From an uncultured Bacteroidota bacterium (GTDB lineage: Bacteria; Bacteroidota; Ignavibacteria; UBA10030), in assembly GCA_963739335.1 (NCBI GenBank), contig CAVUAC010000063.1:36672-100671 (forward strand): a stretch of DNA of 64,000 nucleotides, read 5' to 3'. Both the position numbers and the translations under genes were made by a program. A model generated the notes under the pieces. The model was not told the DNA's origin. It did no database searches and worked only from the letters and a program-made list of their open reading frames with translations. Position 1 is the stretch's first letter, and each line of letters begins with the position of its first letter. Shown piece after piece: positions 15,564-36,136 of the stretch.

Positions 15564-15993
15564 TGAGGGTCTGCGCGAGTAGTCATGGTCATGCAGATGA
15601 GTAGATGTGAACACCCCTGCTGGATAGCACTCGGAAGGATGTTTGTCTTTTCTCTGAGGAGAACGTTGAGTCCACTTTCTTTTTGCTCGCCCAAAAAGAA
15701 AGTGGACAGAAAGTCGCGCTGTACGGGATCCCGCCTTTCGTATTTTGAAGCGGGAAAAAAGGGCGCCGAAATCGAAACCCACGCGGGAGCGCCTCCTCCC
15801 GCCTGCCGGAAATTTCGGTGAGGAATGGTAACTGCTGTCTCGACGATTGGATCGAGACTCACCGAAATTTGAACCCACGTGGTGAAGCTGCTCACGCACG
15901 CCGCCATCGATTTCGGATAGCTCGGGGCAGATGTTCGTTCGGGCTTGAAGAACGTAGAGAAGAAGTTTCATTGAGGGTCTCCGTGAGTAACGA
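15564..15993. repeat. Structured intergenic element, family 1, copy c (with flanking ~28-nt direct repeats)
   Basis: Hairpin CCACTTTCTTTTTG-ctcgcc-CAAAAAGAAAGTGG; P1 CCGAAATCGA...TCGATTTCGG; P2 AAATTTCGGTGAG...CTCACCGAAATTT enclosing GTCTCGA...TCGAGAC. It is flanked by agattcattgagggtctgcgcgagta (15556-) and agtttcattgagggtctccgtgagta (15964-). Confidence 0.75.
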
Positions 15994-16026
15994 CGTTATG
16001 CGAATTCGGAAAAGTGCTCGGAAGTA

Positions 16027-16100
16027 TCAAATCCCCCCGACCCCCCTTTTGAGAAAGGGGGGATGTTGTGCTGGTACTCGATGCCGTGGATTTCGGTGGC
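16027..16100. repeat. Intergenic element, family 2, copy e
   Basis: caaatCCCCCCgaCCCCCCttttgagaaaGGGGGG is a G6/C6 hairpin. It is followed by the gtgGATTTCGGtggcc box. Confidence 0.6.
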
Positions 16101-16123
16101 CATATTTGCCATCTGGCAGAACA

Positions 16124-16891: not shown

Positions 16892-17165
16892 AGGTTTTTC
16901 TGTGGTCAAGAACGACGACAGAATTCCAATGCGTACTTATGCTGAAACAGGTATAGGCGGTTTCGCTATCGGCATTGCCACACCAGAACAAAGTGATCGA
17001 GTGTCCCAGGTTGCCTCACGGCGAGAGGGGCGGCCAACTGCAAGGTTCGCATCTTGAGAAGTTCGTCCGCAGATCGTAAGGATTGGGGGTTTCGGAGGAC
17101 GGCCGACAGCGCAGCCAGAGGCAAATGATGAGATTGCTGGTGACTGTTCGCGAGTGGTCGCTCCA

Positions 17166-18074
17166 TCAGCTTTTGCGTGCCCGTGGGGAGGGATGCACCG
17201 GAGGACCGGAGGGCGGGGGGTTGCAGTACCTCCCAGACCCCAAAGACAAGAAGCCAGATGTGGTTTCGCGAGTAATGGTGCCACCGGCTCGTCCCAGCGT
17301 GCGAACCTGTCTCCACGAGCAATCAGGAAATTCCGTTCGCGTGACTGTGCTGCCATCGGCCTGGCCATAGCTTTTGCGGAGTTGGACGAGGTTGCCGTCT
17401 CCGTCCTGGACCTTTGAAATGATGGCTCCATTTGATGCGTACCGCGTTGCTACCCGGATCGAGCCATCTTGCGGATTGACAACCCTTGTGACGACAGGCA
17501 GACGAAACGTATACGTCTCAAGCCTCCCGTTGCGCAAGACGTGCGTGACGATTGTGTCCTTTTGAAGGCCGAAAAGCTCGGTGACGGTGGTTTGCTGTGG
17601 ATTGTCATCGCGGAGATTTATGTATGAGGCATACCTCTTGGTCTCCGTGACGATATGTCCGTTTCCCTTCCCGTACGATTTCCTGATCGTAATAAGCAGC
17701 AGGCCTTTGGGATGTGCGTAACGCTCAGTGACAATCGCACCGTAGCCCCCTGAGATGACCTGGCCATAGATGTAAACTGTGTCGTTAGCCGTCTTCGTGA
17801 GCGTCATCTTTTTGGTGGCTGAAGCGTCGTTCGAGACTGAAAGGTTGGGTCCATTCGTGAACGTATCTGCCCAGTCGGCGATGGCGTGGACTTCATCAAG
17901 CGCTGAGATGAGAAAGTCTTCGCCGGTGGCTTCGAAATCGTATTTCGAGATGTCCGGGGGTTCGGACATTTGAGTGAGATGGCTGTCGGTTTGACACGCT
18001 CCGAACAGGAAGGCTGCGAACAGGAATGCAGCTGTCGCAAGAAAGAACCGGCCGAGAAAGGGTGATGGGGTCAT
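17166..18074 (-). CDS. Lipoprotein, unknown function
   Basis: MTPSPFLGRFFLATAAFLFAAFLFGAC is a lipobox-like signal. ATG 18074 was verified by hand. Confidence 0.6.
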   Translation of the reverse strand: MTPSPFLGRFFLATAAFLFAAFLFGACQTDSHLTQMSEPPDISKYDFEATGEDFLISALDEVHAIADWADTFTNGPNLSVSNDASATKKMTLTKTANDTVYIYGQVISGGYGAIVTERYAHPKGLLLITIRKSYGKGNGHIVTETKRYASYINLRDDNPQQTTVTELFGLQKDTIVTHVLRNGRLETYTFRLPVVTRVVNPQDGSIRVATRYASNGAIISKVQDGDGNLVQLRKSYGQADGSTVTRTEFPDCSWRQVRTLGRAGGTITRETTSGFLSLGSGRYCNPPPSGPPVHPSPRARKS

Positions 18075-18196
18075 GTGAACCTCCGAGGATGTTGTGAGAG
18101 TTATGAGAGTGTTGGAAGGGGAAACCCTCCCCCGAAGAAACTTCTTCGGGGGAGGCAAGACCGCTGAGAGCACCAAAAAGAATGTTCGGCGGAAGA

Positions 18197-18295
18197 ATCA
18201 AATCCCCCCAACCCCCCTTTGCGAAAGGGGGGAAACGCATAACTGTGGGGATCTTGTGGATGACGCAGGCCAGCACCGCCATCGATTTCGGTAGC
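18197..18295. repeat. Intergenic element, family 2, copy f
   Basis: caaatCCCCCCaaCCCCCCtttgcgaaaGGGGGG is followed by caccgCCATCGATTTCGGtagc. A nearby perfect hairpin is CCCCCGAAGAA-ac-TTCTTCGGGGG (18127-18153). Confidence 0.6.
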
Positions 18296-18427
18296 AAGTG
18301 GCGATTGAGAATTCCGGCGATCAGGATCAGATAATTGCTCATTAGGTCGCTCAGAAGTGGAAGACTAAGACTGTCGTCCTTCGACTCGCCTGCCAAAAGA
18401 CGGCAGTCTCGCTCAGGACAGCAGGCC

Positions 18428-18847
18428 TCAATAGTGAAAGATCAAAACTGCTGCTTCGAACCGCTTGTGTTGAATCTGGATCACGCCGATATAGGTGCCG
18501 GGTGGTGCGAACAGGTTGTCATCGGTATCGCCGAGCCAGGTATGGGCGTGTGAACCCTTTGATTCTGTAGCATTGAGTACGAGAGTCTTCACGAGGTACT
18601 CCTTTCCAGTTGAATCAGTTTTGACTATGAATGCGTTCAATGTGGCTGGGACTTTGAGCGAGTAACAGATCTCAGTGTTTGACTTAAACGAATCAAACGC
18701 GCTGGGTGAAAAGCGAAGACTGCTCACCAGCTCCGGATCATCCAGTGCAGAGGGAAGCTTACAACTGCTCAGGAGCGACAAGACTATGAGCCTTGCCAGT
18801 GTGCGATTATGCGTTTGGTGCCGCGCCATAATTGTGGATGAATTCAT
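18428..18847 (-). CDS. Small secreted/lipoprotein with FlgD-Ig-like C-terminal fold (tentative)
   Basis: It has the signal LARLIVLSLLSSC and ...SHAHTWLGDTDDNLFAPPGTYIGVIQ. An alternative start is at 18829. It overlaps the recombinase 3' end. Confidence 0.5.
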   Translation of the reverse strand: MNSSTIMARHQTHNRTLARLIVLSLLSSCKLPSALDDPELVSSLRFSPSAFDSFKSNTEICYSLKVPATLNAFIVKTDSTGKEYLVKTLVLNATESKGSHAHTWLGDTDDNLFAPPGTYIGVIQIQHKRFEAAVLIFHY

Positions 18848-19676
18848 TCGACAGAATTCTCTTAATGAGCGATTCTCTCATCTCTGGGTGTTGCTGCAGA
18901 TGCACATAAGTGTTGTGTAAGGTGTTGGGAGTACAGTCGAGGTGAAGAGCATAGCTCAATTCGTTCAGGGCATGACGAATGCTCATCTTGTCTACAGGTT
19001 TCTCGCTGAAGGACTCGAGAAAGATCGTGTCGGAGCTCGAGTTTCTGAGCTCCAAGTAGGTGCGTAGTTTCTTCAGGACCGATGCGTGGAGACGAAGGCT
19101 GAACAGCGTGCTAATGATGAGCGACACAGATTTCTTGGTTGTGTGAATAGAGGAGAGTCGCAGTGTGCGCAGCTGGTATTTTCGGACTCCGTAGAAGATC
19201 ATGAGCAACAGGATCAGCTCGTCTCTTCGATAGCGGACAACGTCCGAATCCTCTGAAGAGCGTTGGCGCCGATTGAGATAGTGAAAGATTGAGACGATCT
19301 GATCTGAGGAGAGAATGCCTCCTCTCACAGGCGTCACGGCCAGCGTAGCCGCAGGATTGCTATGAATCAGGCCCTGGTTGAGAAGGAACAGGAAGAAGTT
19401 TTTGAGGGCGAAGGAAGCACGTTTGACAGATGCGAATCTCAATCCGGAACGGGCCAGGGTGTGAAGGTAGTCTTCCAGATCCTTTGTCTGAATTGCGACA
19501 ATAGAACTAAGGTCAGGGGAATCGGACTGGCGAGCAGAACGGTGCAAGAAACCATTGACATCTGAAGCATAGGCCTTAATGGTTCTGTCTGACATTTTCT
19601 TCTTCCTGAGATATCCTATGAACTCCGTGAGGGTGACCTCTATGGGTTGTGGTGTTTCCTGAGGGCCCATGAGCAA
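18807..19676 (-). CDS. Tyrosine-recombinase-like protein (XerC/D-type core-binding domain, degenerate catalytic domain)
   Basis: The N-terminus TEFIGYLRKKKMSDRTIKAYASDVNGFL...KRASFALKNFFLFLLNQGLIHSNP is SAM-like. The catalytic region keeps GVRKYQL (Arg I). It has TPNTLHNTYV where sPHxLRHsfA is expected, and there is no clear LGH...Y tail. Confidence 0.65.
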   Translation of the reverse strand: MLMGPQETPQPIEVTLTEFIGYLRKKKMSDRTIKAYASDVNGFLHRSARQSDSPDLSSIVAIQTKDLEDYLHTLARSGLRFASVKRASFALKNFFLFLLNQGLIHSNPAATLAVTPVRGGILSSDQIVSIFHYLNRRQRSSEDSDVVRYRRDELILLLMIFYGVRKYQLRTLRLSSIHTTKKSVSLIISTLFSLRLHASVLKKLRTYLELRNSSSDTIFLESFSEKPVDKMSIRHALNELSYALHLDCTPNTLHNTYVHLQQHPEMRESLIKRILSNEFIHNYGAAPNA

Positions 19677-20447
19677 TTGGTCCAGAAAAAAATCTTCTAG
19701 AGGGGGTCCTTTTCGCTGTTTTGAGTGAAATAACCAGCTCGGGACAGATGGTGGTTATCCAATAACTACTAGTGAGCAGATCACGGTTATTGCCCCGGTT
19801 GGGTGCACTTTGTTGATGAGATCACCTGGATCTCAAAGAACTGGGCACCAATTAAGAGGAACGAGTGAGGGAAAACAAGCCGGCATTTTTGCCGGATATT
19901 TTTGGGGCGGGGGTGGGAACTTTTTCGGTGAGAAGTGAAACGGAAGAAGGGAGACGGTGGCAAAAGAGCTAGTTGGTGAACCGTGAACCGGAAAGCGTGG
20001 ACCGTGACGGTGATGCTATTGGATACGTCGGGTTGTTGAAGAAGAGTATGGTGATTGACTCTAGGGAGTACTTTCTGCTTCAAGAACTGATCGTTCAAAC
20101 TCTCCTGTAGGCCAGATCAGGCACATCGGCATTACGGAGAATGGCCTGGAAAAGCACAACTTCTATAGCGGATTGACTTTTAGGTCAGACTGTTCTAGCT
20201 TGATGTGAGCGCACCGTGCCCGCGATTGACAAACGAGAGTAACTGCGGGAAAGTGGGATTGAGAACCTCCAGATTCGCAAGAATCGATGAAGGAGGTTTT
20301 GTGTCTAGGGACGAATAAGACGCGGTACCATGTCTACTGTGCCAAGCAAGAAGGAATGACGCAACGCTTAATTGCACGAGTTGTACGCCATGCAGCCCAA
20401 GGTGCCGATAGACGTATTTAATCCTCAATATCGTAAAGGTCACCAAT

Positions 20448-21065
20448 ATGCTAATCGATTGCGCTCGTTGTGTTGCAAGAGTCGATGCGAAAATACTCTA
20501 TAACTACGTCTATCCGCCTTCCGACGAAGGCGATCCTTACGGCTATTTTCTGTTGGATTGCCCCTCTTGCCACGAGGTCTTGCTGGCGGGTGCGGAACCT
20601 GATCCAGATCCGAGTAACCAGTTCGGCTGGTATGCGGTTCAGCGCCTCTGGCCCGAGCCCAAAGAATCCCTCGACGGTCCGATTCCTCCATTAGCACGCA
20701 AAGCTCTTGAAGACGCCCACAAATGTTACTCCGCCGGGGTCTATTCTGCTTGCGCGGTGATGTGCGGGAAAGCAATTGAAGCCATCTGCGTCGACAAGAC
20801 CGGCAAAAAGACTCTGGCCGAAGGCTTAAGGGAATTGAAGAATCAAAATGTAATCGATGATAGGCTTTTTGCCTGGAGTGAGGTGCTACGAGAGCAACGA
20901 AACATAGGAGCGCATGCAGTCGAGGATTCCACCACGGAAGAGGATGCCAGAGACATCTTGGATTTCGCGACAGCCATCTGCGAATACATCTACGTTCTTT
21001 CTGAAAAATACGACCAGTACATCCGACGAAAATCGAGACACAAGAGACGCACCAGCCAAGATTAG
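20448..21065 (+). CDS. Cassette protein: N-terminal zinc ribbon plus DUF4145/HEPN-like domain
   Basis: The ribbon is CARC...CPSCH. The C-terminus is ARKALEDAHKCYSAGVYSACAVMCGKAIEAI...LREQRNIGAHAVE (R-x4-H). Confidence 0.7.
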   Translation: MLIDCARCVARVDAKILYNYVYPPSDEGDPYGYFLLDCPSCHEVLLAGAEPDPDPSNQFGWYAVQRLWPEPKESLDGPIPPLARKALEDAHKCYSAGVYSACAVMCGKAIEAICVDKTGKKTLAEGLRELKNQNVIDDRLFAWSEVLREQRNIGAHAVEDSTTEEDARDILDFATAICEYIYVLSEKYDQYIRRKSRHKRRTSQD

Positions 21066-21091
21066 GATTTTGGTGCTTAGTTAGCTGCACG

Positions 21092-21285
21092 GCTTGTAAC
21101 AAGCGGCAAACCGACGCTCGTGGCTAGTGCTGGCAAGCTATCATGAAGTCAAATGATTGTGAAACCTATTAGGGGCTCATCCACTCGCTCCCCGAAGGGG
21201 TCCTTCGGACAATGCGGTTGCCCTCACAATATCAGACAGAAGGTGTTCGCAACGGCACTGCGGTTTGCCTGAACTCGTTATGCGC
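21092..21285 (+). repeat. attC-type site 1 of array 1
   Basis: 5' cttGTAAC-aagcg-GCAAACCG ... CGGTTTGC-ctgaactc-GTTATGC 3', with the conserved inner blocks GGGCTCAT(C/T)CACTCGCTC and GCAACGGCACTG. Confidence 0.65.
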
Positions 21286-21313
21286 AATGTTGCATAATAA
21301 CGGAGACCAATAT

Positions 21314-22054
21314 ATGTGCGAGAACGTTCTAGCAGGTGTCATATCGAATACCATCTTCTTCGGAATCACCATTGTCATCGGCTGGTCAGCGTTCTTGATA
21401 GTTCGACGACGACGACTCCTTAAGTTTTTTGGAATCGGCGAAACCAAGAGGATAACCGTCTATTTGTCGAACATTCGTGTTGTTGAAGGTGGTTCTGTGG
21501 GAACAGACGGGAAGCCGAGGCGTTATGCAGGCACCACCGTGACTATTGGTGAGGCGGTCCAAGCCAACCTTTTCCCGAATCTTTTCAGCTATCGGATACC
21601 TGGTCTGAGTGACAAACCAGGGATTTTGAAATATCTCATGGTCTCTGATGTTAAGGTCGTCGTCTTGCCTTCCCCACTGAAGGAGGAAGATATCGACAAG
21701 ACGTCATCCATGATCACGTTTGGCTCACCGGGATACAATGTCGTATCGCAATGGGCCGAACGAAAGTTCGTGCCACGAATGAAGTTCGTGCAGGACAATA
21801 GTCAAATTGCGGTGGACAATCTGCCGAACATTGCCGATGGTAAACAGTCTTTTGTGCAAAGGCTTTATGACTCTGACAACAAGCGATGGGTCTTCTACAC
21901 GGCAGGCCTGTCTGAGCTTGGAACCATCGGAGCCGCTTACTTCTTGGCTTCACAATGGCGAAAACTGTATAAGAAATATGGTGCGAAAGATCCGTTCTCT
22001 CATATCATTTCGGTTAATCATCAGAATTACCAAGATGCAACTGTAGTCGTGTAA
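21314..22054 (+). CDS. Cassette protein: N-terminal TM anchor plus uncharacterised alpha/beta-like domain
   Basis: ATG 21314 follows GGAG (8-9 nt). The TM is VISNTIFFGITIVIGWSAFLIV. The upstream part of track ORF 21212..22054 lies inside attC. No family recognised. Confidence 0.6.
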   Translation: MCENVLAGVISNTIFFGITIVIGWSAFLIVRRRRLLKFFGIGETKRITVYLSNIRVVEGGSVGTDGKPRRYAGTTVTIGEAVQANLFPNLFSYRIPGLSDKPGILKYLMVSDVKVVVLPSPLKEEDIDKTSSMITFGSPGYNVVSQWAERKFVPRMKFVQDNSQIAVDNLPNIADGKQSFVQRLYDSDNKRWVFYTAGLSELGTIGAAYFLASQWRKLYKKYGAKDPFSHIISVNHQNYQDATVVV

Positions 22055-22076
22055 GACTATTTCATTCGGCAACACT

Positions 22077-22250
22077 GCGCATGACAATCGGCAAACCGGC
22101 GCTCGCGGGCTAGAGTGGCAAGGGAAAAACCACGTTGGGCTATTGCACTCGCTCAATTGTTTTTTTGGTGTGATTTCTTAGGCTCAGGTAGTACTCGGTC
22201 AAGTCTTGGTCACCAAGAACCGCTGGGTGTAGCCGCGGACTGCGCCACTG
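22077..22250 (+). repeat. attC-type site 2 of array 1 (3' half diverged)
   Basis: 5' gcgCATGAC-aatcg-GCAAACCG gcgctcgcgggctag...cactcgctcaattg... The 3' half, ccgctgggtgtagccgcggactgcgcc, only loosely matches the family. Confidence 0.5.
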
Positions 22251-22265
22251 GCTTCAATAGAAGGT

Positions 22266-23475
22266 GAAACCTCTGAAAAACATCTCGTTGATGGTTCTTT
22301 GCTTAGTGCCATGTAGAGTTTAAGAGGTCATTGGGTGGGAGGAAAATTTAAGAGCTGTTCATGATGATTGAGTTGAATTAGATCAGTAGCACTTTATTAT
22401 GGTTTTTTGGCCGTTTGGTTGGACGGCTTTTAGCCCCCGACTAAGCGAAGGCCCCGTTTGAGATTGACACTGATGGCAGCACAGACAACCTGAATCAGAT
22501 TACGCTTGATCGTGAAGTATTTGAGTCTCTCGAGATGACACCAGCGTTTCAGATCGTTGATACGTGGTTCGATTGCAGACCGAATCTGCGCTAGGGATTT
22601 GTTGCGGCGTTGGTCTTTCGCAGTGAGGGGATGGTAATGGCATCCCTTGCGTAAGATGCCATTGCGCTTCTGATGTTGCTTCAGATACCGATGATGTTGT
22701 TCTGAATCATAGGCTTTATCGGCATAGACAACCTTCGTCTGAGGAGGAATCAGCTCTTCGAAGACATGATGATCATGAACGGTAATCGGTGTCAGGCTAA
22801 TGTGTTCAACCAATCCGGAGCCGTGATCCATCGACAGGTGAACCTTCATGCCCTCTTTGGCCTTTCCCTTACGGCTGGTATAGGCAACATCGGGATCGAC
22901 AAGCTTACCGTTCTTTCTCCTTCGTCCAGGACGAGTCGCTCCTTACACAATGGTCGAATCGATGATAGTGCCCTTGCGAATGAATAAGCCCTGTTCATCC
23001 AGTTGCTCGTTGATCAGGTCGAACAACCGCCGCTCAATTTTGGCTTGCCGAATCCGTCCACGGAACTTCACGAGCGTGGTGTCATCGACATGGTAACGAC
23101 GAATATCCTGACCGACCAAGCCTTCAAAGCTTCGGCGGTCATGCACTTCCTCTACGACCCTCACATCCGACAGGCCATACCATTGTTCCAGCAACAGCAT
23201 CTTGAACAACATCACGGGGGGAATCGCTGGTCGCCCTATCTGTCGGTCATACAGGGTTTTCAAGAGAGCTCCGATGCGATTAAAGTCGATGATCTGATCG
23301 ATCCTATCCAACATCGTGTCCTTCTTGCGCATCAGATTGTCTTCTTGCATCCCGAACGTCAGTTGCGAATCCTTCTTGAGCATGTCCGTTCCTTCTCTAG
23401 TTGATGATGGGAAAAACTCTCCCTCATTGCTCAAAAAGAAATACAACCATCGTGCCAGACTTTTTCAGAGGTTTC
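22266..23475 (-). mobile_element. IS5-family insertion sequence (~1.2 kb)
   Basis: It has 15-bp perfect terminal inverted repeats GAAACCTCTGAAAAA (22266-22280 and complement 23461-23475). It is flanked by the direct repeat AAGGT (22261-22265, 23476-23480). It encodes a DDE transposase. Confidence 0.8.
22430..23383 (-). pseudogene. IS5-family (DUF772 N-terminal plus DDE_Tnp_1) transposase interrupted by one in-frame TAA
   Basis: Track ORFs 22943..23446 (..GRPAIPPVMLFKMLLLEQWYGLSD..) and 22430..22849 (..YADKAYDS..) are in the same frame. They are separated only by TAA at 22943-22945. The intervening codons read GATRPGRRRKNGKLVDPDVAYTSRKGKAKEG. Confidence 0.75.
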
Positions 23476-23488
23476 AAGGTATATACCG

Positions 23489-24652
23489 ATGACACCAGAT
23501 GAACAATACAGAGATTTGGCAAGAAGGCTTGAGGAAATTGGCAAAATCCACGCAAAGGTCTTCTCCGAATTCAACACGTCTCTCAGATTCGCCGAATTGA
23601 ACAGCCTCAAGGTAATTGAACCTCTTATGAAGGAATTTGATAGAATAAACTCTCTCAAACTTCACTTGCCCGCTGTCGAGAACCTTTTGAATTCCCCCGC
23701 TCTTGAAGCTGCTCGTGCTGCTAATCTTGCGATTTCCAAGTTGTCCGTATCACCTCAAATAGAACTTCTTTCCAAGGAGTTAGGTAGGGCCTCTGAACTA
23801 TGGAAAGCCCAGCTTGCTCCGATTTCCTTGGCGACAGAGTTAATTGGCACCTCGTTTCTGGGCATTCAGTCTCAAGTCGCCCGGATGTCTGAGATTTCCC
23901 TTCTCGCTGAACGAAGTCTCGCAAACATTGATTTTGCGAAACTCGGCGGGCTCGCGAACATAGCGCAAGAAATGCAGGATTCCCTTAGAGCTACTCATTT
24001 TTCCTTTTCCGATTCCTATTCTCAACTATTCAAGTCACTTGAAGATTCTCGCTTGAGCATCCTGTCCGTCGCGCCAGTGGTAACCTCACTCCCCCCGATT
24101 GAATTCTATTTTGGAAACAGATTTGTGGAAGTGATCACGTCCTCGGAGCGTGAGGATTCTGAAGAGGATCAATCCATGTCATTTGACCTTCAGAAAGAGA
24201 CGAAGGATGATATTGAATCGCATCTTTCCCGCCTCGACAAATCGTTGATCAAACTCTGGCAAGGAGCAACACAATCAGTGGCTTCCGACAATCCTGATGC
24301 CGTTCGTCACTACTCAATTTCGCTGCGAGAGTTGCTCACCCATATCATACATAGACTGGCTCCAGATGATCAAATCCGAGCTTGGTCCAACGCACCTGAG
24401 TTGTACCATGATGGAAAACCTACTCGGAAGGCAAGGTTGCTCTTCATCTGTCGTGGTATCAACCATCAGCCTTTCAGTCAGTTTCTGCAAAAAGACATCG
24501 ATTCAACCTTGGCTTGTGTTGATTTATTCCAGGAAGGGACGCACGCCATTGATCCCGATCTCTCAGCAATCCAACTCGATTTGTTAAGGATTAGAACTGA
24601 ATCGTCAATTAGGTTCTTAGTTAGGACTTACTTTGATGCCAGCGGCGCATAA
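23489..24652 (+). CDS. Cassette protein (387 aa), helical, C-terminal R-x4-H (HEPN-like) region
   Basis: Long ORF starting 9 nt after the IS. The C-terminus is DNPDAVRHYSISLRELLTHIIHRLAPDD...GKPTRKARLLFI. The stop lies inside the next attC. Confidence 0.6.
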   Translation: MTPDEQYRDLARRLEEIGKIHAKVFSEFNTSLRFAELNSLKVIEPLMKEFDRINSLKLHLPAVENLLNSPALEAARAANLAISKLSVSPQIELLSKELGRASELWKAQLAPISLATELIGTSFLGIQSQVARMSEISLLAERSLANIDFAKLGGLANIAQEMQDSLRATHFSFSDSYSQLFKSLEDSRLSILSVAPVVTSLPPIEFYFGNRFVEVITSSEREDSEEDQSMSFDLQKETKDDIESHLSRLDKSLIKLWQGATQSVASDNPDAVRHYSISLRELLTHIIHRLAPDDQIRAWSNAPELYHDGKPTRKARLLFICRGINHQPFSQFLQKDIDSTLACVDLFQEGTHAIDPDLSAIQLDLLRIRTESSIRFLVRTYFDASGA

Positions 24653-24806
24653 CAGGCGTAACCAAGACGCTTATTCATTTGCAAAGGCAATGTCAAAGCT
24701 GAGTCTGGATGACGGTTGTATTCGCTCCACGGTTTTTGTCGCGGGAGGATTGATTGTTTTGTAGCGGCAAAAGCAACGGCGTTGTTAGAGCAGATGTTAT
24801 GCGTCG
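24645..24806 (+). repeat. attC-type site 3 of array 1
   Basis: GCGCATAAC (contains the TAA stop of the cassette) ... cagatGTTATGCGTC. The inner sequence is unlike the other sites, as is usual for attC. Confidence 0.55.
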
Positions 24807-24846
24807 TTGGCTTGCTGCAGTACGGGAATAGAATTGGAGGGTACAG

Positions 24847-25416
24847 ATGTCAACCAAAGCATCAACAGTTCTTTGGATCGCCGCAGGCTTTGTGATTCTC
24901 GCGCTCCTGTATCTCGTTCAGAGAAAGACCAGCGACATCAAGGAGCTCAAATCGCAGATCGATCAAAACAAAGAACTCACTGAGGACGTGCGGCAACGCC
25001 TTCTAGATTTGCTTCAGTCAAATCGCGATATCGATCCCCAGGTTGCCCAAGAACTGACACAGATCTGTGGGCTTCTCGAAATCCACCAGGACACAAAAGC
25101 GATACTGTCACTCGCCAAGATAATAGAAAAACTCCTGCGGCAACTGTACCAAGACGATCCCGAATTCCTGGCAAAGAAAAAGACTCCGTCGTTTGCCGAC
25201 TACCTCGAACACGCGAGGGATAAGAATGTCATTTCCACAGAAGACTACCATCTCATTTCTGTTCTTCGGCTCATCAGAAACGAAGAGGCACACGAACTCG
25301 CTGTGAAGAAAGAACGCAGTCGAATCGTTGCAGTGCTCATAGCCGGTATCGCCTTTGTGCTTACTCTTAGTCGGTTGCTCAGGAAAAAGTTAGGCGTTGT
25401 CGCACCATCGGTCTGA
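24847..25416 (+). CDS. Cassette protein: TM anchor plus DUF4145/HEPN-like domain
   Basis: GGAGGG precedes the ATG. The TM is VLWIAAGFVILALLYLV. It has ...LRLIRNEEAHELA (R-x4-H) and a second TM at the C-terminus. Confidence 0.65.
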   Translation: MSTKASTVLWIAAGFVILALLYLVQRKTSDIKELKSQIDQNKELTEDVRQRLLDLLQSNRDIDPQVAQELTQICGLLEIHQDTKAILSLAKIIEKLLRQLYQDDPEFLAKKKTPSFADYLEHARDKNVISTEDYHLISVLRLIRNEEAHELAVKKERSRIVAVLIAGIAFVLTLSRLLRKKLGVVAPSV

Positions 25417-25468
25417 GATCAAATGACCATCCGAGAGGAATTGTGCAACAAACACGCAAGCCAACGAA

Positions 25469-25643
25469 CGTATAACAAGCGGCAAACCGGCGCTCGTGGG
25501 CTGGTGTTGGCAGGCTATTACGAAACCAAAGTTGTTGTGAACCTATTTTGGGCTCATTCACTCGCTCAATGCCGTTGCTCACACAATAGTAAATAGTAGG
25601 AGTTTGCAACGGCACTGCGGTTTGCCTGAAATCGTCATGCGTC
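25469..25643 (+). repeat. attC-type site 4 of array 1
   Basis: cgtATAAC-aagcg-GCAAACCG ... internal hairpin GCCGTTGC/GCAACGGC ... CGGTTTGC-ctgaaatc-GTCATGC. Confidence 0.7.
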
Positions 25644-25697
25644 AGCGGCCTCATTTATTACGTCGCTTTGCGGCGCGCTGGTTTCGGAACTCTTGGA

Positions 25698-26114
25698 ATG
25701 TCACTCATGAAATCCTCGACAGCAGGCCACGCAAGACAGATTTGGGATGACATCCGTAACGGCATCTTTTCGGTTGAGATGTTGGCCATGATCAACTTGG
25801 AGAAGCTCAGGTATCTTGCCACGCGCGACAAGACCTATATTGATATGCGAAACTCTTCATCTGCGGAGGTGCTCAAACTCATCGAGAAGCTTCAGTCCGT
25901 TCCAGATCTGGTTGTACCAGAGATGAGCGCCATTGTTCAAGAGATGCCATTGTCTGTGCAATCATTCCTATTTGATCGGTTTCTTTATGTGGATGAATAT
26001 TTAGAGAAATTAGGTCAGACAGAGTTCTTCTTCGAGGAGGGTCCACATGAATTCCTCCGTTGGGGTCTTATGGACATATGGGACTCTCGCGAACGCGTCG
26101 GAGACTGGCGATGA
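25698..26114 (+). CDS. Cassette protein (138 aa), unknown function
   Basis: ORF between two attC sites. ATG 25698 is preferred over the TTG at 25668. Confidence 0.5.
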   Translation: MSLMKSSTAGHARQIWDDIRNGIFSVEMLAMINLEKLRYLATRDKTYIDMRNSSSAEVLKLIEKLQSVPDLVVPEMSAIVQEMPLSVQSFLFDRFLYVDEYLEKLGQTEFFFEEGPHEFLRWGLMDIWDSRERVGDWR

Positions 26115-26182
26115 TCTTTACTTGCTTCATACGATCTCGACAACACGTGCGCCGCAAAGCGAAAAAGAATTGAGGCCGCCCA

Positions 26183-26377
26183 ACGCATAAGATGCGGCAA
26201 ACCGACGCTTGCGGGCTAAGATTGGCAGACTATTCTAAAGGCAAAGATTTGTTGAAGCTGTTTTCGGCTCATTCACTCGCTCAATGGTTTTTGGTGTCAG
26301 TAATAGGCTCAGACAAAGCTCATCAGATTTCAGTGTCACCAAAAACCACTGCGGTTTGTCGGAGACCTTTGTGCAAT
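26183..26377 (+). repeat. attC-type site 5 of array 1
   Basis: cgCATAAG-atgcg-GCAAACCG ... GGCTCATTCACTCGCTCAATGG ... CGGTTTGT-cggagacct-TTGTGC. Confidence 0.6.
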
Positions 26378-26401
26378 GCATCTGCACACCAGAACCTGTA
26401 G

Positions 26402-27631
26402 ATGACTATGATACCAATGACTAATGACATTGCCAGAGGCTGGGCGGGTGAGCAATTGATCGCTCGGTTTTTCGACTCAAAGTTCTCAAAGTTCTTCTCA
26501 TTCCCTAATCCCAAGAGTAAGTCGAAGGCTCAAGTGGCAGATGTTCTCGTCTGGATGAACAGGATAGTCTTTCTTATCGAAGTCAAGACTCGAGATAAGG
26601 GTACTGCTTCAATCGATTCTTGGGCTGGCAACAGAATCGAGCGAGGAATTGAACAAATTACCACGAACTTCAATCGTATCAAGCGAAACGAGAGGATATT
26701 GTTACACAATCGGTACTACCACACCGACCTTGATTGCCTCGGAGTTGCGACCGTCGTTGGTTTGATCATTCTCGTTCACGAGGAGGACTGCAAGATTCCA
26801 CCTTCTTCAGTCGCCCCCGACATCTACAAACAGCCCTTGGCGATCCACGTTTTCTCTTGGTCAGACCTTATGCAAATGACTGCCGAGATTGATACAGTTG
26901 CTGACCTACACTACTACTTGACAGACCGTTTCCAGTACTTGAGTTCGGCTGACATTCCGCTAGGAAGCGAACAAAATGTGCTTGGATATTACAGGATGCA
27001 ATCGAACAAGTTTCCGCCCGCTCCTGTCGATTTTGCCGTTTCAAACTACTGGCACCAGTACCAAGTGGAAATGGCAGACCGAATCCTTGCCCGTAACACA
27101 CACAACGAATACTCGTTCTGGCTCAACAAACTGGAATCTGCGTACTCAGATCAGCGGAAGCTCTTCTCCGGCTATCCTCTTGGGCTGTATATGGTTTGGG
27201 AAATAGGTGCAATAAGCCGCAGGGAGCGTGCCTATCTAGGCGAAAAAATCTCATCCGTGCGTAAATGGTTCGAGGCTGGTAACTCTACAAGGAGGTTTGC
27301 TTGGCTCAACCAATCAACTGGCAACTGGCTTGTTTTCTATTTCTCCAAGAGCGAGCCGAAGTTCTTGGAGCGTGAACTGTATCGGCTTGTCGAACTTAAA
27401 CTGATCAAAGAAGTTCACGACGACGCGTTTGACTTCGGTGCATATGGTTTTGGTTTTCAAGTGTCTCTAACGTTTCCGCCTCGCCTTCTTGGATTAGGAG
27501 CCACAATCATAATGGGAGCCGACCTTGTCAAAGGAAAGTACACGCAGGCTGATGTTGATGAATCTCGTATCCACTTCGGCCACAAAGACGACATCCAGAA
27601 AATGAGAATAGAGGAGTTTCCAAGTGAGTAA
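26402..27631 (+). CDS. Cassette protein: NERD / PD-(D/E)xK nuclease-like N-terminal domain plus C-terminal extension
   Basis: GWAGEQLIARFF...QVADVLVWMNRIVFLIEVKTRD matches the D...E-x-K pattern of NERD-type nuclease folds. Confidence 0.6.
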   Translation: MTMIPMTNDIARGWAGEQLIARFFDSKFSKFFSFPNPKSKSKAQVADVLVWMNRIVFLIEVKTRDKGTASIDSWAGNRIERGIEQITTNFNRIKRNERILLHNRYYHTDLDCLGVATVVGLIILVHEEDCKIPPSSVAPDIYKQPLAIHVFSWSDLMQMTAEIDTVADLHYYLTDRFQYLSSADIPLGSEQNVLGYYRMQSNKFPPAPVDFAVSNYWHQYQVEMADRILARNTHNEYSFWLNKLESAYSDQRKLFSGYPLGLYMVWEIGAISRRERAYLGEKISSVRKWFEAGNSTRRFAWLNQSTGNWLVFYFSKSEPKFLERELYRLVELKLIKEVHDDAFDFGAYGFGFQVSLTFPPRLLGLGATIIMGADLVKGKYTQADVDESRIHFGHKDDIQKMRIEEFPSE

Positions 27632-27644
27632 CTTTGCAGGTGCA

Positions 27645-27805
27645 CTGCGCATATCAAACGGCACGCCAGCGCTCGCTCACTGGATAGGCGATGCTAAAAC
27701 GAAGATTGGCTAAATGAAAAGAGCTCGCTCAATGCTGTTGCTCACACATTAGTAGATAGAAGGAGTTCGCAACGGCACTGCGACGCGCCTAAACTGCTTG
27801 CGCCA
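27645..27805 (+). repeat. attC-type site 6 of array 1 (arms less complementary)
   Basis: gcgCATATC-aaacg-GCACGCC ... GCTCGCTCAATGCTGTTGCTCACAC ... GCAACGGCACTGCGACGCGCC-taaactg-CTTGCGC. Confidence 0.5.
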
Positions 27806-27855
27806 CGCATCCTCACAGGAGTTTTTGAGCTACCAATCAACTAGGAGATCAGCAG

Positions 27856-28992
27856 ATGCCCGGAAGACTTCCTGCCCCTCGAGCGGGCGGTTCTCAGTTA
27901 GTCATAAAAGTCAGACCCGTCGACTTTTCATTTTGGTCAACCGCTAGACAAAGACACGGTCACGCTGCGCTACAGTCGCAGGTCTTTGCAAATGATCCCT
28001 GGAACGTCATTGAGTCAGCGATCAACTCACGCTGCGTGAGCGCTCGCAGAACTGCCGCAATAGCGTTTCTTGAGCAGGCGAAAGACTTCTACGAAGCCGC
28101 TGCGTCATCCAGACTGACCACTTCGAAACCTCTACTTTCGTACTACGCGATGCTCAATATCGCAAAGGCCTTCATTCTAAGCTTTGGGGCTCATTCGAAT
28201 CTTGATTCATTGAGGCATGGGCTTTCTGAGGCAAATGCTAGAAATCCAAGGTTGACCACTCATACCGTAGACGCACACGCGTCGACACCGGCGAGCCTTA
28301 ATGCATTTGCCGAGTTTCATCTGGTAGTGTGTGGTCACCCCTTGGCCCGTACCATTCCAATTCCCATAACACAGCTTTATGCCCAATCAATCCTTGGTCA
28401 TCGACTTTGGAGCACGGCGACAGGGCGAAGGGAACGTTTCATCCATATTCCACGCATCTACTATAATCACGATCATATAGCAAGGCATCTCTGGCTAACA
28501 CTTTTCTTCTACGCTGATGACTTACAGAGAATGTCAATCGGTCACACTCAGCTCCTGAACGATGCGCGCCTATCAAGAGACTTCCGGCAAGTCGTCACTG
28601 ATGAAAGCGAGAATAACCGGCGGCTTATTTGCTTCGAACAACGAACTCCTATCAACTTGACCAGTTTTCCATCGGACAGTCTAGACACTCTCAACGGAAT
28701 ACTAAAGAACAACCTCTGGACAATATTGCTATCGTCTCCACCATACCGAAGATTTTATGCCTATGCCGCCGCGGCAGGTGAAATTGTCCTACACCAGCTT
28801 CTGTCAACCTACGCTCTAGCATACTATTTTGGATCCGTAACTAGATATCGACCTCATCAATTTCAATTAATGCTCGAATCACGATATGGCTCTTTCATTC
28901 GGGAGTTCGTCGATCATCAGATTCTTCAATTCATTTATCTGCTTGCTGCGCACTTTGACAGGCGAGACGTGGTGAAACCAGCCGTAATCTGA
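27856..28992 (+). CDS. Cassette protein, YaaC-like
   Basis: AGGAG precedes the ATG. FLEQAKDFYEAAASSRLTTSKPLLSYYAMLNIAKAFIL resembles the YaaC family signature. Confidence 0.5.
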   Translation: MPGRLPAPRAGGSQLVIKVRPVDFSFWSTARQRHGHAALQSQVFANDPWNVIESAINSRCVSARRTAAIAFLEQAKDFYEAAASSRLTTSKPLLSYYAMLNIAKAFILSFGAHSNLDSLRHGLSEANARNPRLTTHTVDAHASTPASLNAFAEFHLVVCGHPLARTIPIPITQLYAQSILGHRLWSTATGRRERFIHIPRIYYNHDHIARHLWLTLFFYADDLQRMSIGHTQLLNDARLSRDFRQVVTDESENNRRLICFEQRTPINLTSFPSDSLDTLNGILKNNLWTILLSSPPYRRFYAYAAAAGEIVLHQLLSTYALAYYFGSVTRYRPHQFQLMLESRYGSFIREFVDHQILQFIYLLAAHFDRRDVVKPAVI

Positions 28993-29037
28993 AAACTCAC
29001 AATGGAAGTTTCTGACTCTGCTAAACGTGCGGCTGCG

Positions 29038-29133
29038 CGGTGCATAACACGCCGCACTACTACGCACGCAAAATAGCATCACCAAGCTCTTGGGTTCGCA
29101 ACGGCGCAGCGGTTTGCTGCAGACCTTAGGTGA
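29038..29133 (+). repeat. attC-type site 7 of array 1 (short, ~95 bp)
   Basis: gtGCATAAC-acgcc-GCAC ... GCAACGGCGCAGCGGTTTGC-tgcagac-CTTAGGT. Confidence 0.55.
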
Positions 29134-29161
29134 AACAGTGGCCAGCTAGGAAGGAGTGAAA

Positions 29162-30190
29162 ATGGATCTCTATCAGATACTTGAAACCATTGGAAAGATC
29201 ACGCTGGGTGTTGGCTGTTTTGGCCTTGTTGCTTGGATTATCAAATTGCTTACCCAAGTGAATAAGAACCAAAAAGAATACATCTCTCTGCTTGAGAAGG
29301 AGTTTCAAGAAAGAGAGAAAACCAGAGAACAAAGAATCGCCAGCATGATAGATATTCACAAACAGGAAGTTAATCTGCTGGAACGCAAACACGAACTATT
29401 GGTTGCTTCCATTGAGTTGGAAAAGAGGACAATTGAACAAAGGTATGAGATGCGTGTAGGGAAGGACACAAAGATACCAAATTACTCGACAACTGGCCTG
29501 ACATCTCTTGCTCTTGACAAACTTGATGACAAAGAAGAATGGAAAAGACTTTCAGATTACCTCTCACATAACATCAAACAAATACTTATCCCCATTCTTC
29601 AGCAGGTGTCTGAACTAAGGGAGATTGGTAAACCTGATGCCACGAGGATTGAACATCTATATGACTACATACATGATCTGAATGAGCAATCGAACCTACT
29701 CACTATCTTCTCAGGAGAGACTCTCACAAAGAACACTCAGATTGACTTGATGGAAGTGTTTAAGAAAGTTGACACCACAATAACGCGTGGAGCTCTTAAA
29801 ATGGTTTTTTCTCCACCTGGGATAACGAGGGTGATGGTGTTGGCCGAAGAAGCAATGCTCTACTACGCCTTGTCCGAAACACTGGAAAATGCAAGAATAC
29901 ATGGAGCTGATTCCAAGGTGTATGTCACAATCACAAGGGACTCTGGTCTTGTTCGTGTAGAAATCAAGAACGTGGCAAGCAGTTGTGTACCAGACCTGGC
30001 GCCAATGAGAGGATATGGTTTGCTGATGTTGCGAAAAACAATTGAGGCAATGCAGGGTGAAATGTCCTACGAAGCCAGAGAGGAAGATGGTCAACCGTTT
30101 TTTGCGGTCAAGGTTAGTCTAGTGGCCGCTGCTTCGCCTGATAGCAGCAACAGCGACGCTCACTCATCTGGTAAGGTTCATGACGAATAG
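29162..30190 (+). CDS. Cassette protein: TM-anchored histidine-kinase-like (H-box plus GHKL ATPase) protein
   Basis: GGAAGGAG precedes ATG 29162. The TM is ITLGVGCFGLVAWIIKLL. It has an H-box-like LSHNIKQIL and the ATPase motifs LENARIHG...GYGLLMLRKTIEAMQG. Confidence 0.6.
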   Translation: MDLYQILETIGKITLGVGCFGLVAWIIKLLTQVNKNQKEYISLLEKEFQEREKTREQRIASMIDIHKQEVNLLERKHELLVASIELEKRTIEQRYEMRVGKDTKIPNYSTTGLTSLALDKLDDKEEWKRLSDYLSHNIKQILIPILQQVSELREIGKPDATRIEHLYDYIHDLNEQSNLLTIFSGETLTKNTQIDLMEVFKKVDTTITRGALKMVFSPPGITRVMVLAEEAMLYYALSETLENARIHGADSKVYVTITRDSGLVRVEIKNVASSCVPDLAPMRGYGLLMLRKTIEAMQGEMSYEAREEDGQPFFAVKVSLVAAASPDSSNSDAHSSGKVHDE

Positions 30191-30194
30191 AGTG

Positions 30195-30343
30195 CACTCA
30201 ACGCCGTTGCTCATCCCGATGCGACCAAAATCGCATCGGGGCAACGGCACTGCCCGCCTTCGCTTGCGCTACGGCGGGTAAACAAACCCGCCTACACTAG
30301 CGTTATGGTGGGCAGGCGGTTTGCCTAAACTGCTTGCGGGCGC
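30195..30343 (+). repeat. attC-type site 8 of array 1 (no clear 5' core)
   Basis: It has the hairpin GCCGTTGCtcatCCCGATGCGA...TCGCATCGGGGCAACGGC, then CGGTTTGC-ctaaactg-CTTGCGG. Confidence 0.5.
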
Positions 30344-30379
30344 ATGGAATAAAATACAACGAAAATTTGGAGGGATAGC

Positions 30380-31210
30380 ATGAATCTGGTACTCTCTGCC
30401 AACTCGATGTCGTTTGTCTGTCCGAAGTGCAAGCGTCCACTTCGCTCAGTGGACAACTCTCTCTACTGCAGCGAATGTGACCGGACGTATCCCATCACCA
30501 GCGGCATCCCAGACTTTATTGCAGGAGATTCGCAGGCCAGCCTCGCCCCTGTCTTACGTATCGCCAAGGTTATGGACTTTCTGGCCCCCATTTACGAATC
30601 CCGGTTCTGGCAGCAACTTAACCTTAAACTGGCTGGTGCTCGCGGCAGTTCGCTTCGCAGTATCGCGAGTTTCCATTCTCAGACCTTGGAGGGCGTAACT
30701 GGGTCTGTGCTGGATGTGGCATGCGGACCAGCGACCTACGGACGCCGTATCGCATCCGCATCTAGAAGCGTTTATGGCATTGACATCTCAATGGGCATAC
30801 TACGGAAAGGTATGACCTATGTAGCACGAGCCCGCATGTCAGGTGTTTATCTCGCGCGAGCCCGCGTAGAGGAACTGCCATTTGGCAACGCCGTCTTCGA
30901 CGGGGCAATTTGCTCCGGATCTCTCCACCTCTTCCCCGATACAGTGCTCTCTCTGCGCGAAATCGCGCGAACTATGAAAACGGGTGCACCTCTATCGGTT
31001 CAGACTTTCATTGCGGGAAATACAATAGTGAATCGTTTGTTGAAGAAACAGTCCTGGGTTCATAATTTCGAACTTGTTGAATTGCAGCAATATCTGACCG
31101 AGGCTGGTTTTCAGGGATTCCGGTGGAAACTTGATGGCCCCATTGTCATAACTTTCTGTGCACGCAAAGCCGTGTCTGATCAACAGATGTGCATCGTGCT
31201 GGCACATTGA
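30380..31210 (+). CDS. Class I SAM-dependent methyltransferase with N-terminal Trm112-like zinc ribbon
   Basis: The ribbon is CPKCKRPL...CSECDRTYPITSGIPDFI. VLDVACGPATYG is motif I. It also has FDGAICSGSLHLF. GGAGGG precedes the ATG. Confidence 0.8.
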   Translation: MNLVLSANSMSFVCPKCKRPLRSVDNSLYCSECDRTYPITSGIPDFIAGDSQASLAPVLRIAKVMDFLAPIYESRFWQQLNLKLAGARGSSLRSIASFHSQTLEGVTGSVLDVACGPATYGRRIASASRSVYGIDISMGILRKGMTYVARARMSGVYLARARVEELPFGNAVFDGAICSGSLHLFPDTVLSLREIARTMKTGAPLSVQTFIAGNTIVNRLLKKQSWVHNFELVELQQYLTEAGFQGFRWKLDGPIVITFCARKAVSDQQMCIVLAH

Positions 31211-31262
31211 AGTTAGCGGCGAAAATACTACATCTAACAGAACCTTTATAAAAGGTCGGAGT

Positions 31263-31290
31263 CCCCGCAAAGAGCGTGCGGGGTTTCGTC
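31263..31290 (+). terminator. Possible rho-independent terminator closing array 1
   Basis: CCCCGCA-aagagcg-TGCGGGG followed by TTTCGTC, a weak T tract. Confidence 0.4.
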
Positions 31291-36112: not shown

Positions 36113-36136
36113 AAGTTAGCCGAGCTCCTCCTAGGA

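Follow-up and report, generated by a model that had tools for sequence, protein, structure and literature searches.

The stretch of DNA analysed here, 64 kb from an uncultured Bacteroidota bacterium and hereafter called the window, very probably carries at about 20,368-31,243 the attI end and the cassette array of a chromosomal integron that is now devoid of its integrase, frozen and decaying. This array would be of a type found in Ignavibacteriota/Bacteroidota-like bacteria from peat and freshwater sediments. A contig identical to that of the window is present in run ERR10755944. The window has a G+C content of 50%, and nearly all of its long open reading frames (ORFs) lie on the minus strand, except nine plus-strand ORFs at 20448-31210. 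Eight of these nine have 3′ of them a copy of one family of imperfect palindromes of 91-204 nt, the eight sites (named attC A to H in their order) spanning 9.2 kb. A preliminary description of this DNA had placed a palindrome behind each of the nine ORFs, which holds for eight of them, the ninth being followed by a 12-nt stub; its interpretation of the region as an integron-type array with attC-type palindromes was borne out by the R″/R′ cores, the 5/6-nt spacers, the covariation of L″ with L′ and the permutation of the cassette ends.

In the mechanism proposed for this region, nine co-directional cassettes, each composed of one ORF and an attC site (R″, a 5-nt spacer, L″, a branched centre, L′, a 6-8-nt spacer and R′), would have been inserted as circles by a tyrosine recombinase crossing over at the G|TT of attI or of an attC, as the permutation signature suggests, so that every cassette would open with ~20 nt complementary to the R″ side of the attC that belongs to it. 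The enzyme would have been like that of the intact relatives, IntI-like and encoded just upstream on the same strand, with its gene now gone from the window; most likely, the arrival of a neighbouring integrative island, or a deletion linked to it, would have taken out this integrase.

A co-oriented repeat family with attC anatomy

Relatives of the window palindromes were sought in a genome collection with one genome per species, by means of a two-arm pattern scan, and in metagenomes, by means of a 24-nt pattern of the 5′ arm. The genome scan matched 48 loci, mostly by chance, and just four among these were real (L026, L027, L030 and L049), belonging to an Ignavibacteriae metagenome-assembled genome (MAG; L030 and L049, on two contigs), an Ignavibacteriales MAG (L026) and a Bacteroidota MAG (L027); the metagenome scan returned at least 120 contigs. 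A search with nhmmer across all genome loci and the metagenome contigs among the matches listed revealed 382 repeat copies in 128 loci, with one ORF ahead of each copy and a median copy-to-copy spacing of 851 bp; for example, L101 held 16 copies within 14.3 kb, an intact one among them at 8368-8578. The orientation of the copies was uniform in 126 of these 128 loci. The other two, L096 and L172, held copies both ways round, which inverted arrays or misassembly could explain. An nhmmer profile built from 296 distinct copies, with the window copies left out, recovered six of the window sites, all on the plus strand (F, 92 bits; D, 67; B, 57.5; A, 46; E, 41, or 40.6 before rounding; C, 31), and beyond those six nothing was found at E<0.1 on either strand of the 64 kb.

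The anatomy of the family was read from 310 full-length copies from outside the window, again among the matches listed, in which the AAC triplet was in place in 305 and the GTT triplet in 301 (98% and 97%, respectively). The R″ box was GCCTAAC in 127 copies, GCATAAC in 48 and GGCTAAC in 29, among others, and R′ mirrored it (GTTAGGC in 119, GTTATGC in 52, GTTAGCC in 31, and others); the strict IUPAC cores, RYYYAAC and GTTRRRY, were matched by 49% of the R″ and 44% of the R′ boxes, the remaining ones being off at one degenerate position. The spacers showed the classical 5/6 arrangement, with 5 nt on the 5′ side (AAACG in 261/310) and 6 nt on the 3′ side (CTAAAC in 251/310). Complementary pairs were formed by L″ and L′, namely GCAAACCG/CGGTTTGC in 178 copies, GCAAAACG/CGTTTTGC in 22, GCAACACG/CGTGTTGC in 20 and CCAAACCG/CGGTTTGG in 10, and at the fixed 5/6 spacing the two boxes had at most one mismatch in 90% of the copies.

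The folding of 87 diverse copies with RNAalifold predicted 27 pairs, 21 of them with double compensatory changes, and such double changes were seen at six of the nine L-stem pairs. The predicted elements were a 9-bp L stem, a short stem in the 5′ module and a long inner hairpin with at least three covarying sequence versions. Single-sequence DNA folds gave an R stem, a 4x5-nt internal loop, the 9-bp L stem and a multibranch centre, the loop and the centre corresponding to the unpaired central spacer and the variable terminal structure of attC sites, and this 4x5-nt loop was the only asymmetry. The sites had a median length of 156 nt (range 130-212), and 98% of them exceeded the maximum of the classical attC range, which is 57-141 bp (Loot et al. 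2017, PMC5371416). The folding energy of the top and bottom strands was not discriminating (mean difference of -1.0 kcal/mol, the top strand being slightly more stable), and comparable strand energies have been reported for chromosomal integrons (PMC5371416). An Rfam scan of the window returned two tRNAs only; the attC covariance model of IntegronFinder is not part of Rfam.

Some sites of the family carried insertions that form hairpins, one of 62 nt in attC H of the window and, in four relatives, a CCCCGCG..CGGGG mini-hairpin of 19 nt located in L″. Insertions or replacements were recorded in L147 and L171 (in L″), in L049 at ~7700 and in L051 at ~5680, and a block 'CCGCCCGAACG...CGTTCGG' stood in for L′-R′ in two relatives. 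These small insertions and replacements are possibly the footprints of an attC-targeting element. Elements of the IS110/IS1111 group target attC sites, and two IS110-family transposase genes (280-1401, plus strand; 1907-3085, minus strand) were found inside the L026 array, which has the same attC family.

In integrons, the crossover at G|TT puts at least the last six bases of a cassette's own attC at the start of that cassette. The presence of this signature in the relatives was assessed by comparing the 14 nt outside the AAC of attC n with the 14 nt after a GTT, in 45 pairs. With the R′ side of attC n-1 the mean agreement was 9.5/14, and 18 of the 45 pairs reached at least 12/14, whereas the controls, in which the R′ of the same attC or that of a random attC was taken, gave means of 7.2 and 7.0, respectively, with none of the 45 pairs at that level in either. 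Individual cases were perfect across ~20 nt, as in cassette 2 of L176, which starts with GTTAGCCGCCATTGTGGCAA and ends with TTTGCCACAATGGCGGCTAAC. In the window, five cassettes had cognate scores of 16, 15, 15, 13 and 13 of 19, against 7.8 ± 2.1 and a maximum of 12 for non-cognate combinations: the start of cassette 2, GTTATGCGCAATGTTGC, agreed at 16/19 positions with the reverse complement of the R″ side of attC B, GTCATGCGCAGTGTTGC, and the same rule gave 15/19 for cassettes 3 and 4 and 13/19 for cassettes 5 and 8. In the relatives as in the window, cassette starts are complementary to the R″ side of their own attC and not to that of the neighbour's. Moreover, the methyltransferase of the last cassette, cassette 9, has a 72%-identical homologue between two attC sites of a different array (L147), and it is therefore a true cassette elsewhere. 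Together, the permutation signature and this homologue point to an array that would have been built cassette by cassette via site-specific recombination.

These results also bear on the idea that the palindromes are a generic intergenic repeat resembling attC, such as a repetitive extragenic palindrome (REP), a miniature inverted-repeat transposable element (MITE) or a terminator-like sequence. That idea would suit their inner blocks, unusually long and sequence-conserved for attC sites, their median of 156 nt with 98% of the copies beyond the classical 141 bp, and their L stem without an extrahelical base. However, neither strand of the 64 kb has a copy beyond the array; in 126 of the 128 loci among the matches listed, all copies point the same way and each repeat goes with one ORF; the G|TT permutation signature is specific to site-specific cassette insertion; and an IntI-like recombinase and a GTTRRRY attI stand at the head of arrays. 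Since the copies are co-oriented and confined to arrays, the REP/MITE alternative, which is highly improbable and close to refuted, was rejected, and the distribution that the preliminary description had named as pointing to such a repeat, scattered between genes in both orientations, was not what was observed.

Integrase and attI-like sites in the relatives and in the window

The integrase of this lineage was sought by probing all ORFs of all loci by phmmer with IntI1, which served as a probe only, and matches were obtained in L103 and L128 only. The L103 protein, of 287 aa, had the integron integrase model TIGR02249 as its best model, with 221.7 bits against a cut-off of 265, in an alignment of two stretches that skipped model positions 179-232. 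The best PDB match of its L175 orthologue was VchIntIA (2a3v), with 147.6 bits, and this orthologue presented 26 residues where IntI4 has 68; its alignment with the archaeal XerA was contiguous. The relatives' recombinase combines a SAM_4 domain at its N-terminus with a complete catalytic domain of the RKHRHY type, and the skipped TIGR02249 stretch, together with the 26 residues in place of 68, indicates that it is IntI-like but without the ~42-aa IntI-specific I2 region.

This recombinase has more than 7,700 family members at E<1e-40, from which five homologues, picked by similarity alone, were examined. In four of their loci (L175, L176, L177 and L180) the recombinase gene is followed by ~60-90 nt, by a motif ending in CACTAGTTAKGC (GTTRRRY) and then by co-directional cassettes that end in the same attC family, and the permutation rule holds at the attI junction too. 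In the fifth, L178 (62% identity), the attI-like motif is present and attC sites of the same family are absent. Thus, counting L103 and L128, an integrase and an attI-like site head arrays in six independent loci, with up to at least seven cassettes, and in all six the integrase gene shares the strand of the cassettes and immediately precedes attI.

In the window, no match to IntI1 was found by phmmer across the 64 kb, and tblastn with four of the relatives' recombinases gave a best E value of 0.047, on the recombinase-like gene of the neighbouring island, an integrase remnant not being found. The in-frame translation upstream of 20318 was considered as such a remnant; its likeness to the last ~12 residues is vague at best, and it is not claimed as one.

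The proximal end of the array is probably marked by an attI remnant at 20368-20386 on the plus strand (TTAATTGCACGAGTTGTAC), with an R′ box GTTGTAC and a crossover G|TT at 20380, at which cassette 1 would start. This assignment is based on its position just before cassette 1, on a 13/17 permutation match and on one good pairwise alignment. The match is that of the 17-mer at 20380-20396 with the reverse complement of the R″ side of attC A, and only two plus-strand positions in the 64 kb reach 13/17. The candidate was aligned with the region past the recombinase stop codon in L103, L128, L175, L176 and L177, and the local-alignment z score was 8.8 against L176, 4.0 against L180 and 1.6-3.1 against the others. 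The 55 nt before the candidate (20313-20367) bear a loose likeness to the stop codon and 3′ flank of the relatives' integrase gene. Another candidate, at 19753-19776 (ATAACTACTAGTGAGC), was rejected as an attI remnant, as it falls within a ~300-nt region upstream of the recombinase-like gene of the island that is conserved in L050 and partly in L051 and L054, loci without an array there.

Probable decay of the array, its cassettes and the adjoining island

Both the AAC and the GTT triplets are intact in only two of the eight window sites, all of which lie on the plus strand: attC A (21094-21283, 190 nt; TTGTAAC-AAGCG-GCAAACCG ... CGGTTTGC-CTGAACTC-GTTATGC) and attC C (24647-24802, 156 nt; GCATAAC ... 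GTTATGC), the latter with diverged L boxes (TAACCAAG / CGTTGTTA). The AAC alone is also kept in attC D (25470-25640, 171 nt; GTATAAC ... GTCATGC), in which GTT has become GTC, and in attC G, where the R′ triplet is CTT. In attC B (22079-22246), whose R″ box GCATGAC has GAC instead of AAC, the 3′ arm has degenerated and R′ has lost its GTTA; the profile match of this site covers the 5′ half only. Both triplets are altered in attC E (26185-26374, 190 nt; GCATAAG ... CTTTGTG), with AAC changed to AAG and GTT to CTT, and in attC F (27649-27803, 155 nt; GCATATC ... CTTGCGC), with AAC changed to ATC and GTT to CTT and with altered L boxes as well. The layout reported in the preliminary description, GCATAAC-5nt-GCAAACCG ... 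CGGTTTGC-7/8nt-GTTATGC, is found literally in A and D, the other six sites (B, C, E, F, G and H) showing a mutated version of it.

The remaining two sites are hybrids. The 91-nt attC G (29042-29132), read by eye, has a 5′ arm GCATAAC-ACGCC-GCACTACT and a 3′ arm CGGTTTGC-TGCAGAC-CTTAGGT, its centre being deleted, and comparison with L176 revealed that its two arms are of different subtypes. The 204-nt attC H (30136-30339) combines an R″ box GCCTGAT and an L″ box CAACAGCG with the L′ box CGGTTTGC and an R′ box CTTGCGG, with GAT in place of AAC and CTT in place of GTT, and holds a 62-nt hairpin insertion at 30254-30315; its 3′ arm has a weak profile match, and attC G and the 5′ arm of H are discernible only by eye. 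As the arms of G and H belong to unlike L-box subtypes, internal deletions are the best explanation for both, and the two sites would be the hybrids left by them. A variant 3′ end of 16 nt, GCCTAAACTGCTTGCG, stands in place of CTAAAC-GTTAGGC in both F (27787-27802) and H (30323-30338); it is also present in one metagenome copy, in L126, and is therefore recurrent rather than a private mutation. The last attC is represented by an R″-like stub of 12 nt (31232-31243, plus strand; ATCTAAC-AGAAC), read by eye and without a profile match, after which the remainder of the site is missing, and this marks the distal end of the array.

The array is also interrupted by an insertion sequence (IS) of the IS5 family at 22265-23476 (minus strand), which sits 18 nt into cassette 3. 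Its terminal 16-nt inverted repeats (TGAAACCTCTGAAAAA) are perfect, with AGG at both flanks, and its transposase is split in two ORFs, 22943-23446 and 22430-22849 (NCBIfam transpos_IS5_4, 97.6 and 92.8 bits), a split that could be due to a frameshift or to decay. The loss of triplets, the hybrids G and H, the truncated last attC and this IS5 insertion indicate that recombination has ceased to maintain the array, whose expression may persist.

Several points weigh against the assignment to an integron. The I2 region is missing in the relatives' integrase, so membership in the IntI/attC system in its strict sense does not apply. No bulged (extrahelical) base, a canonical attC feature, is present in the 9-bp L stem, neither in the consensus nor in individual folds, and the search for extrahelical bases that the preliminary description had proposed thus ended with an unbulged stem. 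A profile of seven attI sites ranks the window site (20352-20382) only fourth, with E=6.8 window-wide. Finally, the view is limited to 64 kb of the genome, and the integrase could be encoded elsewhere.

That last point is also the ground for a different account, in which the array is still active and an integrase encoded elsewhere in the genome acts on it in trans, as for some clusters of attC sites lacking an integron-integrase (CALINs). Half of the CALINs lie in replicons with an IntI elsewhere (Cury et al. 2016, PMC4889954), and attC A and C retain AAC, GTT and complementary arms. Nevertheless, six of the eight window sites have lost AAC and/or GTT, against 98% and 97% kept in the 310 copies of the relatives, the arms of the hybrids G and H are non-complementary, and in six of six intact relatives the integrase adjoins attI. 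This activity in trans is consequently unlikely, and a frozen, decaying array remains the preferred reading.

The cassette ORFs all lie on the plus strand. Cassette 1 (20448-21065) encodes a DUF4145/HEPN-like protein of 205 aa (Pfam DUF4145, 67 bits; HEPN, 21 bits), cassette 2 (21314-22054) a protein of 246 aa with a hydrophobic N-terminus and no family match, and cassette 3 (23489-24652) a pPIWI-associated-nuclease-like protein of 387 aa (Pfam pP_pnuc_1, 94.9 bits; PADLOC Aga_Nuclease, 39.7 bits). The stop codon of cassette 3, TAA at 24650-24652, falls within the R″ box GCATAAC of attC C (24647-24653), just as the preliminary description had noticed. Cassette 4 (24847-25416; 189 aa) has a transmembrane segment at its N-terminus and a second, weak Pfam DUF4145 match; cassette 5 (25668-26114; 148 aa) has no family match; cassette 6 (26402-27631; 409 aa) is NERD-like, with a Pfam NERD match of 20.7 bits that is under the cut-off; and cassette 7 (27856-28992; 378 aa) is YaaC-like (Pfam YaaC, 103.7 bits). 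Cassette 8 (29156-30190; 344 aa), with a weak Pfam HATPase_c match, overlaps the 5′ arm of attC H with its 3′ end, and cassette 9 (30380-31210; 276 aa) encodes the class-I S-adenosylmethionine-dependent methyltransferase, with NCBIfam methyltransferase matches. The DUF4145/HEPN, NERD, YaaC, ATPase-like and methyltransferase domains named before any database search were thus recovered with Pfam and NCBIfam, those of NERD and HATPase_c being weak. From the domains alone, the nuclease-, HEPN- and NERD-type proteins suggest defence or toxin functions; the PADLOC scan of the window cassettes returned only the domain-level Aga_Nuclease and a weak mad2, and no known defence system is claimed. In the relatives, the recombinase of L180/L181 is followed by a first cassette encoding an Rce1-like protease and a second one encoding an outer membrane protein (OMP) beta-barrel (9284-10950), and the same pair of cassettes was found in L027 (6098-7747); an Rce1-like gene with an attC was also seen in L051-L053 (L051 5679-6620), ~4 kb from the recombinase-like gene of the island, with no integrase between them.

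The neighbouring island occupies ~16 kb (4093-20000), next to the probable attI, which lies ~350 nt from its end, and its first gene is the tyrosine-recombinase-like ORF at 18807-19670 (minus strand), which is not part of the integron. The preliminary description had placed this divergent gene at the position of intI and had judged it degenerate. The second judgement agrees with its Pfam Phage_integrase match of 23.5 bits, under the cut-off of 27.1, with its best NCBIfam match, to XerD (62.6 bits against a cut-off of 329), with a PDB match to XerA only, at E=2e-3, and with the absence of a TIGR02249 match in the NCBIfam scan. The first was not sustained, as the integrase of the lineage is co-oriented with the cassettes, upstream of attI, and absent from the window. 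The family of this ORF comprises 51 clusters with 37-89% identity, all of ~287 aa, in which, by comparison with an active relative, Arg I is kept and the Lys, the HxxR motif, the second His and the Tyr are conserved in no member aligned. Full-length conservation over such a range of identities argues for a conserved, catalytically dead protein instead of a decaying gene, and the family has the appearance of a tyrosine-recombinase derivative that binds DNA without catalysis. Its SAM-like N-terminal DNA-binding domain is intact, and most members end in ...PNA.

In L051-L054 and in P0003 contigs the recombinase-like gene heads a co-directional module of ~15 kb, with a small ORF, several uncharacterised proteins, Lin1244_N, PolB-thumb, YdjM, a KaiC/AAA_25 ATPase, AAA_16, in some cases HTH_17, and an integrase, in this order. 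The window module, at 4.1-19.7 kb, is the same, encodes also an MBL-fold protein, and ends in a large serine recombinase beside tRNA-Gln (4093-4166) and tRNA-Glu (4256-4329), where the module of L051-L054 has a tyrosine integrase and HTH_17. The serine recombinase ORF (4154-6109, minus strand) is open through both tRNA genes, which lie on the opposite strand, and its Pfam domains stop at residue 405 of 651; its C-terminal third may be a read-through artefact or belong to a disrupted gene. The outer flank of the recombinase-like gene varies by genome, being an IS3 transposase, an extracytoplasmic function (ECF) sigma operon or a cassette, and its ~300-nt upstream region is shared with orthologues that have no adjacent array; therefore, this gene is the end of an island that abuts the integron. 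The tRNA end of the island and the stretch at 19.7-20.4 kb were found to share no direct or inverted repeats, which leaves the ends of the island undefined.

It could still be proposed that ORF 18807-19670 is a degenerate remnant, or a non-catalytic partner, of the integrase of the array, considering that it is divergent and ~700 nt from the probable attI and that in L051-L053 one attC copy, an oddity, lies ~4 kb from the orthologue, again in divergent arrangement. Such a relationship is extremely doubtful, since the family is full-length in its 51 clusters and not a decaying pseudogene, the catalytic K, HxxR, H and Y are missing in all aligned members, the best match is XerD and not TIGR02249, the gene is always co-transcribed with the same island module with a varying flank on its other side, the ~300-nt upstream region is conserved with orthologues lacking an adjacent array, and the true integrase of the lineage is co-oriented with the cassettes. 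The recombinase-like gene is accordingly treated here as an island gene. On the other side of the array, the right flank (34769-48743, minus strand) encodes a HerA/DUF87 ATPase (PADLOC HerA, 61 bits) with an adjacent 447-aa protein without a match, a Schlafen-group-3-like helicase (266 bits), an EEP-family nuclease/phosphatase and an AAA_24 protein, and this flank may be a defence island beside the cassette array.

Comparison with known integron systems

Compared with known systems, the window region appears to function like a sedentary chromosomal integron array, and in the vocabulary of IntegronFinder it classifies as a CALIN. With the Vibrio cholerae superintegron and its V. cholerae repeat (VCR) attC sites it shares long arrays of co-oriented, mostly single-ORF and promoter-less cassettes, a lineage-specific and homogeneous long attC with R″, L″, L′ and R′, 5/6-nt spacers and a branched, variable centre, an unpaired central spacer, the G|TT circular permutation, an attI beside the integrase gene and a cargo rich in nucleases and defence functions. 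It differs in the length of its attC sites (median 156 and up to 212, against 57-141 bp), in an unbulged L stem, in the R stem of the reconstituted site, of ~20 bp, and in the integrase, which in the relatives lacks I2 and is encoded on the cassette strand and which is absent in the window. As in the CALINs (Cury et al. 2016), which are recognized by at least two attC sites less than 4 kb apart, no intI is within reach of the eight sites in 9.2 kb, an IS is located inside and signs of degradation are present; in the same way, no gene with PF00589 and intI_Cterm within 4 kb of an attC, as in a complete integron, was found in the window. Unlike a CALIN, the window keeps a probable attI at its proximal end, its attC family is non-canonical, and the cause of the loss of the integrase is visible as an adjoining integrative island.

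The relatives' recombinases add further points of comparison. The inverted-integrase integrons of the Treponema denticola type also have the integrase on the cassette strand, upstream of attI; however, they carry the IntI-specific C-terminal insertion of the IntegronFinder definition, which the relatives' recombinases lack. With the 'integron-like' subgroup of tyrosine recombinases (Smyshlyaev et al. 2021) and with Xer these enzymes share their best scores, to TIGR02249 and VchIntIA (2a3v), their SAM_4 N-terminus and their RKHRHY-type catalytic domain, and in that subgroup the insertion is not fully conserved, members without it being known (Smyshlyaev et al. 2021, PMC8138268). Unlike the insertion-less members held to be non-functional in integrons, the relatives' recombinases head arrays of at least seven cassettes with an attI-like site. 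Insertion-less recombinases beside attC were set aside as not IntI, with fewer than three attC sites nearby (Cury et al. 2016, PMC4889954), and I2 has been considered necessary for cassette capture, evolutionary intermediates being lacking (Escudero et al. 2020, PMC7790495). This 'additional domain' is held to be essential for the recombination of single-stranded attC sites, the extrahelical base of the L box being the landmark that it reads. As both the extrahelical L-box base and the I2 of the relatives are missing, the array should not be filed as canonical IntI/attC.

Complete integrons have been reported in Chlorobi, Ignavibacteriae and Bacteroidetes (Néron et al. 2022, PMC9024848), and the window feature appears to be a decayed form of a known kind, in a lineage, with long bulge-less attC sites and an I2-less integrase, that appears undescribed; no published description of this pairing was found, in a literature coverage that was incomplete. 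It is conceivable, although this is offered tentatively, that the array is a decayed member of an undescribed lineage of functional integrons without I2 that is abundant in metagenomes of peat and freshwater sediment. The features of such a lineage may include an IntI-like enzyme without I2, an integrase on the cassette strand, attC sites of ~156 nt, centres with three-way junctions and no extrahelical base in the L box, and it could represent a pre-I2 intermediate or a variant that has lost I2. If the pairing is functional, the origin or the dispensability of I2 becomes directly testable. In a 2026 study of Stordalen Mire, 97.4% of the contigs with integron-type recombinases were not complete integrons for IntegronFinder, a finding for which novel attC sites were put forward by the authors among possible explanations (PMC13323075); a functional lineage of this type would account for part of these 97% and, if real, could explain why most integron-type recombinases in such habitats are without IntegronFinder-recognised attC sites. 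The window would provide a clean, annotated case of the death of a chromosomal integron, with the integrase lost beside an island, mutated triplets, hybrid attC sites and an IS insertion.

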